The position numbers and the translations under genes were made by a program. Of a stretch of DNA of 64,000 nucleotides, positions 43,267 through 43,828 are shown one piece after another. The stretch is from Sedimentisphaerales bacterium (lineage in GTDB: Bacteria > Planctomycetota > Phycisphaerae > Sedimentisphaerales > SM23-30), in contig JAFGKT010000064.1 of assembly GCA_016928435.1 (NCBI GenBank), positions 2,753-66,752 on the forward strand. Reading direction: 5' to 3'. The notes beneath the pieces are model-generated. The model did no database searches. It was not told the DNA's origin and saw only the letters and a list, made by a program, of their open reading frames with translations. Position 1 is the stretch's first letter, and every line of letters starts with the position of its first letter.

Positions 43267-43391
43267 AATTTATTCCTTTTATATGCTGCTGTCCGTTAGT
43301 GGTTTAGCTGTCGCCGGTGGTGTTATGCAGTTTGGGCCCTTTCGCGTTGGCTGTAACAGGCAATATATTCCACCATACTCAAAGTCTTGTT

Positions 43392-43407
43392 CGCAAATAC
43401 CGTGCCA
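43392..43407 (-). promoter_or_regulatory. Sigma-54 (-24/-12) promoter candidate for clpB
   Basis: The minus strand reads TGGCACGGTATTTGCG, matching TGGCACG-N4-TTGC with exact GG/GC spacing. It lies about 125 nt upstream of the clpB ATG. Confidence 0.65.
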
Positions 43408-43494
43408 TAAAGCGGATGTTTTGTTTAAGTATTTGTGGTAAAAGGCTTTATATTGCAATGGTTTTTGGAGAAGATTTGACGGAGTTTAAAAGTC

Positions 43495-43597
43495 TGCCAT
43501 TGTGGCATGAAATAGGTCCAGTTTGCGGCTGTGGCAGTTGGACTTTATACAGCCTGTCAGGTTGGCACGGACATCTGCCAACATTGCCACAGTGGCA
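43495..43597. promoter_or_regulatory. Cluster of TGCCA/TGGCA palindromes (candidate enhancer-binding-protein sites)
   Basis: TGCCA-TTG-TGGCA (43495-43507), TTGGCA-N8-TGCCAA (43562-43581), TGCCA-CAG-TGGCA (43585-43597). All lie midway between the two sigma-54 promoter candidates. Confidence 0.45.
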
Positions 43598-43697
43598 GGC
43601 TATCCCTGAGGGCGGATGGGTGAGACGATAATTGTCAATAGCGTAAAATGTTTTACAGCAATAGTTTACGATCTAGTACGAAGGTTTGTAGTTTTTC

Positions 43698-43713
43698 TGG
43701 CATTGTCTTTGCT
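43698..43713 (+). promoter_or_regulatory. Sigma-54 (-24/-12) promoter candidate for groEL-groES-groEL
   Basis: TGGCATTGTCTTTGCT matches TGGCAY-N5-TTGCW with exact spacing. It lies about 115 nt upstream of the groEL ATG. Confidence 0.6.
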
Positions 43714-43828
43714 TTGTGTGACGACATAGAGTCGGAGTCTAGCCTGACTCCGTGGCAAAGAATAAATCGGTAGTGACAATTTGAGTTACTTTTAAATCCG
43801 CTAGTGCTTAATTAAGGAGACAAACAAT

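Follow-up and report, generated by a model that had tools for sequence, protein, structure and literature searches.

A stepwise reversal of strong strand-specific codon bias around the clpB/groEL1 junction of a Sedimentisphaerales bacterium, and its possible relation to replication fork convergence

The chaperone genes clpB and groEL1 of a Sedimentisphaerales bacterium (Planctomycetota; Phycisphaerae) lie back to back on contig JAFGKT010000064.1 and are separated by an intergenic region that carries a conserved divergent promoter module. The stretch of DNA analysed here, referred to as the window, comprises the 64 kb of this contig in which the junction lies. Its gene content is that of ordinary chromosomal DNA, and neither tRNA genes nor Rfam matches were found in these 64 kb. 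A sequence-only reading of the window had noted that the synonymous codons of its genes depend on the strand on which a gene lies, and that the polarity of this dependence flips in the clpB/groEL1 intergenic region, as it might at a replication terminus or at a rearrangement breakpoint. The evidence presented below is drawn from the window and from related loci of about 22 kb each, all of them centred on clpB, which are designated by L-numbers (L001, L081, L083, L086, L170, L171 etc.) and represent related lineages. As the main measure of bias we used the GC skew, i.e. the relative excess of G over C, at four-fold degenerate codon sites, which are without the selection that acts on codon positions 1 and 2. 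Roughly 50 proteins from the window were additionally scanned with NCBIfam and Pfam.

The intergenic module is organized around two sites of the sigma-54 (-24/-12) type, predicted from the consensus to be promoters, which face the two flanking genes (Table 1). The site facing groEL1 is the sole exact match to TGGCAYN5TTGCW in the window, where 0.16 would be expected, and is kept in six relatives; all 11 relatives examined likewise carry an element of the type facing clpB ahead of that gene. The palindromes between the two sites are kept in both position and sequence (for instance TGCCAACCTGACAG, present in the window, L001, L081 and L171), and probably serve as binding sites of an enhancer-binding protein common to both promoters. 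The order of promoters and palindromes is identical in L001, L081, L083, L086, L170 and L171, and so is the order of the genes on either side, with clpB facing away from a groEL1-groES-groEL2-dnaJ-grpE-Zn-ribbon series. Judged by this shared layout, the clpB/groEL1 junction is ancestral and unbroken. The closest species representatives are metagenome-assembled genomes (MAGs) of Phycisphaerae, with ClpB identities of no more than 76%; the ClpB proteins of the six lineages that keep the unit are about 76–79% identical to that of the window, and the ClpB relatives recovered in a scan of metagenomes are at most 72% identical.

Some further observations concern the module and its neighbouring genes. 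In L084, L085, L168, L169 and L173 clpB retains its sigma-54 promoter without an adjacent chaperonin cluster, and the conservation of these elements suggests a heat-shock regulon governed by sigma-54 and an enhancer-binding protein in Sedimentisphaerales. In L083 (7743-10000) the module is split by an insertion of about 1.75 kb with a 316-aa open reading frame that has no Pfam match. The two groEL paralogues stand in tandem, an arrangement kept in relatives: groEL1 encodes 565 aa, has no groES ahead of it, and ends in a long Gly-Gly-Met tail that derives from 9-nt repeats, whereas groES and groEL2 follow it.

To the left of the junction, the bias is strongest in the first 35.5 kb (domain A in Table 1). 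There the coding-strand four-fold GC skew is +0.70 in plus-strand genes (n=1835 G+C sites) and -0.70 in minus-strand genes (n=984), and the choice between the codons of two-fold families divides plus and minus genes in the same manner, with T/(T+C) at 0.72 vs 0.32 and G/(G+A) at 0.70 vs 0.23. The intergenic skew of this domain is +0.33, and the total GC skew, computed in 2-kb windows, reaches extraordinarily high values of +0.25 to +0.52 up to 40 kb. The earlier claim that the plus strand left of 43.3 kb is G-rich at synonymous sites in genes of both directions is thus confirmed, and the seven hand counts of G and C per 60 nt on which it was based proved to be exact when recounted. Its companion, that the same strand is also rich in T, holds for plus-strand genes and intergenic DNA, but fails for the minus-strand genes. 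Because the bias tracks the DNA strand and not the gene strand, transcription and codon selection are excluded as its main cause.

Domain A hence displays strand-specific synonymous codon choice of the Borrelia type, with the ribosomal protein genes rplM and rpsI as damped members. The four-fold skew is +0.43 in rplM, +0.16 in rpsI and +0.21 in the flagellin gene further to the right, against +0.6 to +0.85 in their neighbours, which indicates that translational selection in highly expressed genes opposes the mutation bias. The rplM-rpsI pair and the flagellin gene also use more pyrimidine-ending four-fold codons. The first gene of the window, coding for a Type ISP restriction-modification enzyme with Type_ISP_C and N6_Mtase domains, has the most extreme skew of all, with a four-fold G:C of 209:23. 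Beyond a change point at 35.1-36.6 kb the bias falls to the intermediate level of a shoulder (domain B), with a four-fold skew of +0.42 over the 8 kb to which clpB belongs, and clpB has the shoulder value of its neighbours, though these neighbours are lineage-specific.

The main change point of the window lies at the right edge of the clpB/groEL1 intergenic region. The best single change point of the four-fold G/C series is at 44017 (support 43834-44041; likelihood ratio 545), and that of all third positions, scored as G/T vs A/C, is at 43864 (support 43225-43882; likelihood ratio 438), so that the sign change which had been placed within 43267-43828 is borne out to within about 300 nt. The four-fold skew is +0.63 to the left and -0.30 to the right of 44017. 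A terminus-type sign change, from plus to minus, is therefore present at weakly selected sites, but it is stepwise and yields no clean mirror image. The sign of the total GC skew, by contrast, is the same on either side of the junction: the total skew stays between +0.1 and +0.19 until 49 kb, is around 0 up to 55 kb, and does not drop to -0.2 to -0.3 before the end of the window, placing the maximum of the in-window cumulative skew at about 53-55 kb. The total skew hides the change at the junction because the first codon positions of plus-strand genes are G-rich.

Segmentation of the four-fold series gives a monotonic fall, from +0.69 (to 35.5 kb) through +0.39 (35.5-44.0 kb) and -0.19 (44.0-58.4 kb) to -0.58 beyond. 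A staircase with three steps, the further two of which lie at about 35.1-36.6 kb and 58-60.3 kb, had the lowest Bayesian information criterion (5604.5), followed by a sigmoid in the form of a Gaussian cumulative distribution function centred at 45.4 kb with a standard deviation of 9.9 kb (5657.9), and one sharp switch fitted worst (5708.8). The notion of a point-like switch is thus unsupported; what is seen is a staircase of about 25 kb that includes a near-neutral plateau of 15 kb. The intergenic skew follows the same course along the window, from +0.33 to +0.04 and then -0.09.

The right side is not the mirror image of the left that the sequence-only reading took it to be, for between 43.8 and 58.4 kb the four-fold skew is only -0.16 to -0.22, and just the last 5 kb or so reach -0.59. 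On the plateau (domain C) the two-fold codons stand halfway between the two dialects (T/(T+C) 0.54, G/(G+A) 0.45). The next change point is at 58.4 kb by the four-fold G/C series or at 60.3 kb by third positions (G/T vs A/C), with joint support of 57.9-60.8 kb. Beyond it, in domain D, the two-fold values reach 0.44 and 0.39. Plus-strand genes on the right were said to prefer NNC and NNA codons; at four-fold sites they in fact prefer NNC and NNT, with A as the rarest base, and the excess of T over A keeps its sign across the junction. The minus-strand gene pcm is indeed G-rich on its own coding strand. The G+C content is equal to the left and right of the junction, and plus-strand genes make up 25 of 34 on the left and 14 of 15 on the right.

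Table 1. Domains of strand bias, genes and promoter elements of the window, with their coordinates
Feature	Coordinates	Strand	Remarks
Domain A, full-strength bias, plus strand G-rich	1..35500		Four-fold skew +0.69/+0.70 in both directions; housekeeping genes on both strands: Type ISP restriction-modification enzyme, ruvCAB, PGM/PMM, rplM-rpsI, MgtE, FtsX/ABC, B12-radical SAM, sigma-54 activator, histidine kinase
Type ISP restriction-modification gene	15-2909		First gene
rplM-rpsI	14344-15385
Domain B (shoulder), intermediate bias	35501..43266		Four-fold skew about +0.39 to +0.47, flagellin +0.21; genes: flagellin, AcsV-like protein, PLD-like protein, clpB
Flagellin gene	36453-37865
clpB	40681-43266	minus
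clpB/groEL1 intergenic region	43267..43828		562 bp; conserved divergent promoter module; GC skew +0.19
Predicted sigma-54-type -24/-12 promoter TGGCACGGTATTTGC facing clpB	43393..43407	minus	Pattern match, about 126 nt upstream of the clpB start
Three palindromes, TG(C/T)CA-N3-TGGCA type	43495-43507, 43554-43567, 43585-43597		Between the promoters
Predicted sigma-54-type promoter TGGCATTGTCTTTGC facing groEL1	43698..43712	plus	About 116 nt upstream of the groEL1 ATG
Domain C, near-neutral plateau	43829..59225	plus (all genes)	Four-fold skew -0.16 in ordinary genes, -0.22 in chaperonins; genes: groEL1, groES, groEL2, dnaJ, grpE, Zn-ribbon protein, methyltransferase, topoisomerase VI subunit B, uppP, two hypothetical genes, recG
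Tandem groEL paralogues	43829-47647	plus
9-nt repeats in groEL1	45416-45520	plus
Topoisomerase VI subunit B gene	51692-53575	plus
Domain D, plus strand C-rich	59226..64000		Coding-strand four-fold skew -0.59 in plus genes, +0.53 in pcm; genes: cyanophycin-associated ABC exporter (plus), DUF1854 gene (plus), pcm (minus)
ABC exporter and DUF1854 genes	59952-62937	plus

Three other genes of the right side deserve a brief comment. The topoisomerase VI subunit B (NCBIfam E=1e-200) has a Lys-rich N-terminal extension of about 90 aa and no adjoining gene for subunit A; the gene of about 630 aa found at the equivalent place in relatives codes for a different protein of 24-26% identity. The ABC exporter and the DUF1854 protein match the NCBIfam pair termed cyanophycin metabolism-associated, below its cut-off, and there is no cyanophycin synthetase in the window.

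Comparison with the related loci reveals that the junction is a recurrent site of change. It is the best four-fold change point in five lineages, namely the window itself (44017), L081 (10021), L086 (9284), L170 (10174) and L171 (8632), at distances of 20-315 nt from the intergenic region. Strong steps, defined by a likelihood ratio above 15 and a step of at least 0.3, are present in 6 of 9 loci of the clade, as against 16 of 91 clpB-centred loci of other taxa, where change points are scattered and weak. L086 has a layout like that of the window, with a wholly different set of genes following clpB: the chaperone block stands at about 0, the approximately 8 kb from clpB onwards are at -0.2 to -0.5, and -0.6 follows. 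That clpB shares the shoulder value of its neighbours and that L086 has this layout with other genes argue for a gradient governed by the distance from the junction and not by gene content. In L170 the step has the same sign on both sides, and the skew of groEL1, groES and groEL2 is weaker than that of dnaJ and grpE; L001 has a uniform skew with no step at the junction. Three pairs of independent assemblies match across the junction: L086 is identical to L087 over 22.6 kb and L081 to L082 over 4.1 kb, and L171 shares 99.99% identity with L172 over 13.8 kb.

The same clade offers a measure of how deeply and for how long the bias has acted. The ClpB proteins of L081 (10001-12595) and L168 (359-2947) are 95% identical, yet their genes are written in opposite codon dialects: L081 has G where L168 has C at 139 of 382 shared four-fold sites, the reverse is never seen, and the four-fold identity is only 38%. 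Four-fold sites are saturated among all lineages compared. Across 12 lineages, the GC skew of ClpB codon positions 1 and 2 correlates with the four-fold skew (r=0.78, slope 0.05), which implies that the strand bias extends to the amino acids of a protein that is itself highly conserved. The saturation and this correlation together demonstrate that the skew states are long-lived. A recent horizontal exchange of the chaperone block was considered and discarded, the four-fold identity between lineages being at the level expected from composition alone.

The leading strand of replication is characteristically G- and T-rich, an enrichment traditionally explained by the deamination of cytosines in the lagging-strand template while it is exposed. 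A bias that is tied to the DNA strand over tens of kilobases, whichever way the genes are transcribed, is a hallmark of mutation pressure associated with replication. From this we infer a link to the direction of replication, and as the best available reading, to which we give roughly even credence, we propose that the window spans a zone of about 25 kb in which replication forks converge, i.e. a terminus, in a lineage with a very strong replication-strand mutation bias. On this model, the G-rich leading strand would probably result from an excess of C-to-T changes on whichever strand is left single-stranded while it serves as the lagging-strand template. DNA up to about 35 kb would always have been copied by a rightward fork, with the plus strand leading, and that beyond about 59 kb mostly by a leftward fork, with the plus strand lagging. 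Between 35 and 59 kb the direction would be mixed, with forks preferring to fuse at a small number of places (about 36, 43.8 and 59 kb); alternatively, the mixed zone might reflect a meeting point that has recently shifted by about 15 kb. The codon dialects would then be a passive result of mutation bias at synonymous sites. The largest step lies in the conserved sigma-54 module that separates clpB from groEL1. The monotonic profile and the transition of about 25 kb match termination at a few defined sites or a small shift of the terminus, and the position of the largest step in a unit free of rearrangement and the shoulder value of clpB fit such a zone as well; multi-site or probabilistic termination of this kind has been modelled (PMC3317982).

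Of the initial proposal of terminus-like converging forks, two parts stand, in that the polarity is of the right type and nothing but a cause linked to replication fits the data. The terminus itself is challenged by the relatives, which have discontinuities of a non-terminus polarity at the same junction. In L081 the skew goes from about 0 to +0.5 across the unbroken junction. In L083 (1-22592) it is -0.5, then +0.2 to +0.64 for 10 kb, then -0.6, so that the junction itself, at -0.5 to +0.64, is of the origin type, with a return to -0.6 only 7 kb on. In L171 clpB alone is at -0.53 amid neutral neighbours. In L173 (1-17398) the series runs from about 0 through -0.65 (2 kb), 0, and +0.3 to +0.6 (5 kb) to -0.81, so that L083 and L173 have three or four strong domains in 17-22 kb, in both of which the skew tracks the DNA strand and not the direction of the genes. 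These domains and the polarities at the junction imply far more boundaries than one origin and one terminus can account for. Frequent rearrangement with slow re-equilibration could account for the mosaics of variable regions, yet not for the recurrent gene-anchored boundary at clpB/groEL1.

Other observations also weigh against a terminus. Domain D is an incomplete mirror of domain A at two-fold and intergenic sites. The context at the scale of the replicon lies outside the 64 kb, and as the related loci were all picked via clpB, the frequency of boundaries among them applies to the surroundings of clpB. No match to the gamma-proteobacterial dif core was found in the window with up to 3 mismatches; a looser ATAA-N6-TTATG core gave matches at chance level, among which the two candidates near 57 and 58.9 kb are unconvincing. 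However, dif prediction has failed for Planctomycetes (PMC3025954), and the missing match is thus weak evidence. Gene orientation does not reverse at the switch either; such a reversal may not be a proper expectation here, since orientation bias appears weak in the related loci. For a similar reason, the earlier worry that the genes to the right would be encoded head-on to replication is weaker than it was made out to be, as the related loci show little link between gene direction and the sign of the skew, and the plateau is not clearly replicated leftward.

A replication origin at the switch was rejected: the polarity is plus-to-minus, the window has no cluster of DnaA boxes (15 matches with at most 1 mismatch, as against 13.4 expected), and neither dnaA nor dnaN is among its annotated genes. 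A "two-clock" comparison of the slow purine/pyrimidine component with the fast transition components at four-fold sites, intended to separate a recently changed direction from a mixture at equilibrium, did not discriminate between them: the pyrimidine fraction of four-fold sites on the plateau (0.64) is not diagnostic, as the neutral baseline in relatives is itself pyrimidine-rich (about 0.55-0.62), and a simple rate model gave inconsistent mixing fractions. A fixed transcription-linked bias at divergent promoters was dismissed, the sign it implies differing among lineages, and so was a genome-wide reversal of skew polarity between lineages, both polarities being present within this one window.

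The recurrence of the boundary raises the issue of whether the sigma-54 module, or complexes assembled on it, might itself be where the direction of replication changes, as a natural barrier, a preferred fusion site or, in some lineages, a site of origin-independent initiation. The switch would then owe its position to the module and not to a chance location of the locus opposite the origin. The coincidence of the best change points with the junction in five lineages and the concentration of strong steps in the clade favour such a role, and so does the unbroken unit on which independent assemblies agree, for rearrangement cannot make a discontinuity inside an unbroken unit. Nevertheless, we consider this unlikely: a single mechanism does not predict polarities as varied as those observed (in the window and L086 of the terminus type, in L083 of the origin type, in L081 and L170 without a change of sign, and in L001 no step at all), part of the junction effect is the damping of skew in the highly expressed groEL and groES genes, as in L170, and the window gives no sign of fork arrest and contains no Tus- or RTP-like gene or Ter-like repeat; the sample is also small. 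The more far-reaching proposition, that the module is a boundary of replication direction and that strand-bias mosaics at the kilobase scale go beyond one origin and one terminus, reflecting an unusual mode of replication or instability, appears to us distinctly improbable. The discontinuities might instead stem from frequent shuffling of segments that outpaces the slow re-equilibration of synonymous sites, the steps being scars or half-ameliorated segments unrelated to a terminus. The genes downstream of clpB differ in every lineage, the chaperonin neighbour has been lost in 4 of 11 informative lineages, domains of 2-10 kb with skews of +/-0.6 to 0.8 make up the mosaics of L173 and L083, the nearly identical ClpB proteins of L081 and L168 sit in opposite skews, and the steps at about 36 and 59 kb lie at or near intergenic regions beside lineage-specific genes. 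Set against this, the conserved unit that holds the main step is unbroken, clpB has the same shoulder value as its neighbours, the profile is monotonic with a uniform domain A of 35 kb, and all boundaries are free of repeats and mobile elements; in particular, 35-64 kb is devoid of noteworthy repeats of at least 30 nt, and insertion sequence (IS) elements are lacking at the boundaries. An inversion scar would keep the coding-strand skew and flip the genes, but here the genes stay on the plus strand as the skew passes from +0.70 through -0.16 to -0.59. As the main step lies in a never-broken unit and its boundaries lack repeats and IS elements, it is no inversion scar, and a rearrangement breakpoint at the junction, the other proposal of the sequence-only reading, is rejected by the retention of the unit and its internal intergenic layout in the six lineages. 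A mosaic of rearrangements as the general explanation is, in our estimate, a minor possibility.

Two further explanations concern the chaperones and the assembly itself. Codon selection linked to expression could mimic a change of dialect in highly expressed chaperones, and damping of this kind is indeed seen in rplM, rpsI and flagellin within strongly biased DNA, and in groEL1, groES and groEL2 of L170 relative to dnaJ and grpE. On the plateau, however, ordinary genes are as neutral as the chaperonins (-0.16 vs -0.22), so that expression does not explain it; the intergenic skew drops there from +0.33 to +0.04, and the sign becomes fully negative later, in genes that are not chaperones. Expression is thus largely refuted as the main cause, and we deem it very improbable. 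Equally improbable is a chimeric contig in which two related genomes were joined within the conserved clpB/groEL region. The window comes from a single MAG assembly, and its change point falls where conservation within the region is highest and where relatives from the same community would share k-mers; yet the two sides do not differ in G+C content, the layout recurs in L086 and is confirmed by the independently assembled L087, L171/L172 and L081/L082 agree across the junction, and the shoulder and plateau are graded, unlike a two-state join.

If the interpretation as a terminus is correct, the window would represent one of the strongest replication-strand mutation biases, under which synonymous codon choice is almost wholly recast, with a four-fold G:C of about 6:1, and the composition of the proteins is measurably shifted. 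The phylum concerned has hardly been characterised with respect to replication, termination and dif. Searches of the literature yielded no account of unusual GC skew from Phycisphaerae or Sedimentisphaerales. Detectors of codon usage, genome binning and horizontal transfer would misread such genomes, and landmarks of replication in them would need to be sought with the skew of four-fold sites, not with total skew. Furthermore, if the recurrent discontinuity is real, it would offer a testable handle on the sites where forks stop or start in bacteria without a known termination system.

The GC skew of genomes usually ranges from a few hundredths to about 0.2, and the values of the window are at or beyond the upper end of those reported. 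In its general form the switch resembles the skew shift at bacterial termini, such as the dif/Ter region of E. coli (PMC3317982, PMC3025954): the sign of the G over C excess changes from plus to minus independently of gene direction, most strongly at synonymous sites, and the transition is narrow relative to a genome. It differs in that a total skew of 0.3-0.5 and a four-fold skew of 0.7 are several-fold larger than usual, and in that the profile is a staircase with a neutral plateau of 15 kb, without a recognisable dif or a flip of gene orientation. Abrupt steps away from the origin and terminus, as in L083 and L173, are also known from local skew inversions produced by recent inversions or horizontal DNA, but the main step of the window lies in ancestral gene order, among core housekeeping genes and with no flip of gene direction. 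The flat plateau between two steps recalls the fork traps of E. coli (Tus-Ter) and Bacillus subtilis (RTP-Ter), since two opposed, discrete arrest sites in alternate use would imprint such a plateau on the skew. This likeness is one of pattern only: the trap would be just about 15 kb wide, one of its boundaries is a sigma-54 promoter module, none of the NCBIfam and Pfam matches of the window's proteins belongs to the Tus or RTP families, and there are no repeats common to the 43.5-kb and 59-kb boundaries, nor any Ter-like repeats in the window. Strand-specific codon usage driven by replication has been described in Borrelia burgdorferi, Chlamydia muridarum (PMC2089121) and Lawsonia intracellularis (PMC2671203), and as in these bacteria, the dialect of a gene is set by its strand and not by its expression, with leading-strand genes favouring codons that end in G or T. 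In contrast to them, the window belongs to the Planctomycetota (Phycisphaerae), its dialects are apparently more strongly separated, its A/T component is weak and not mirrored, clpB carries either dialect within the clade, and skew domains extend down to a few kilobases. The window thus belongs to two known kinds of phenomena, the GC-skew shift point and replication-driven strand-specific codon usage, and is an extreme case of them.

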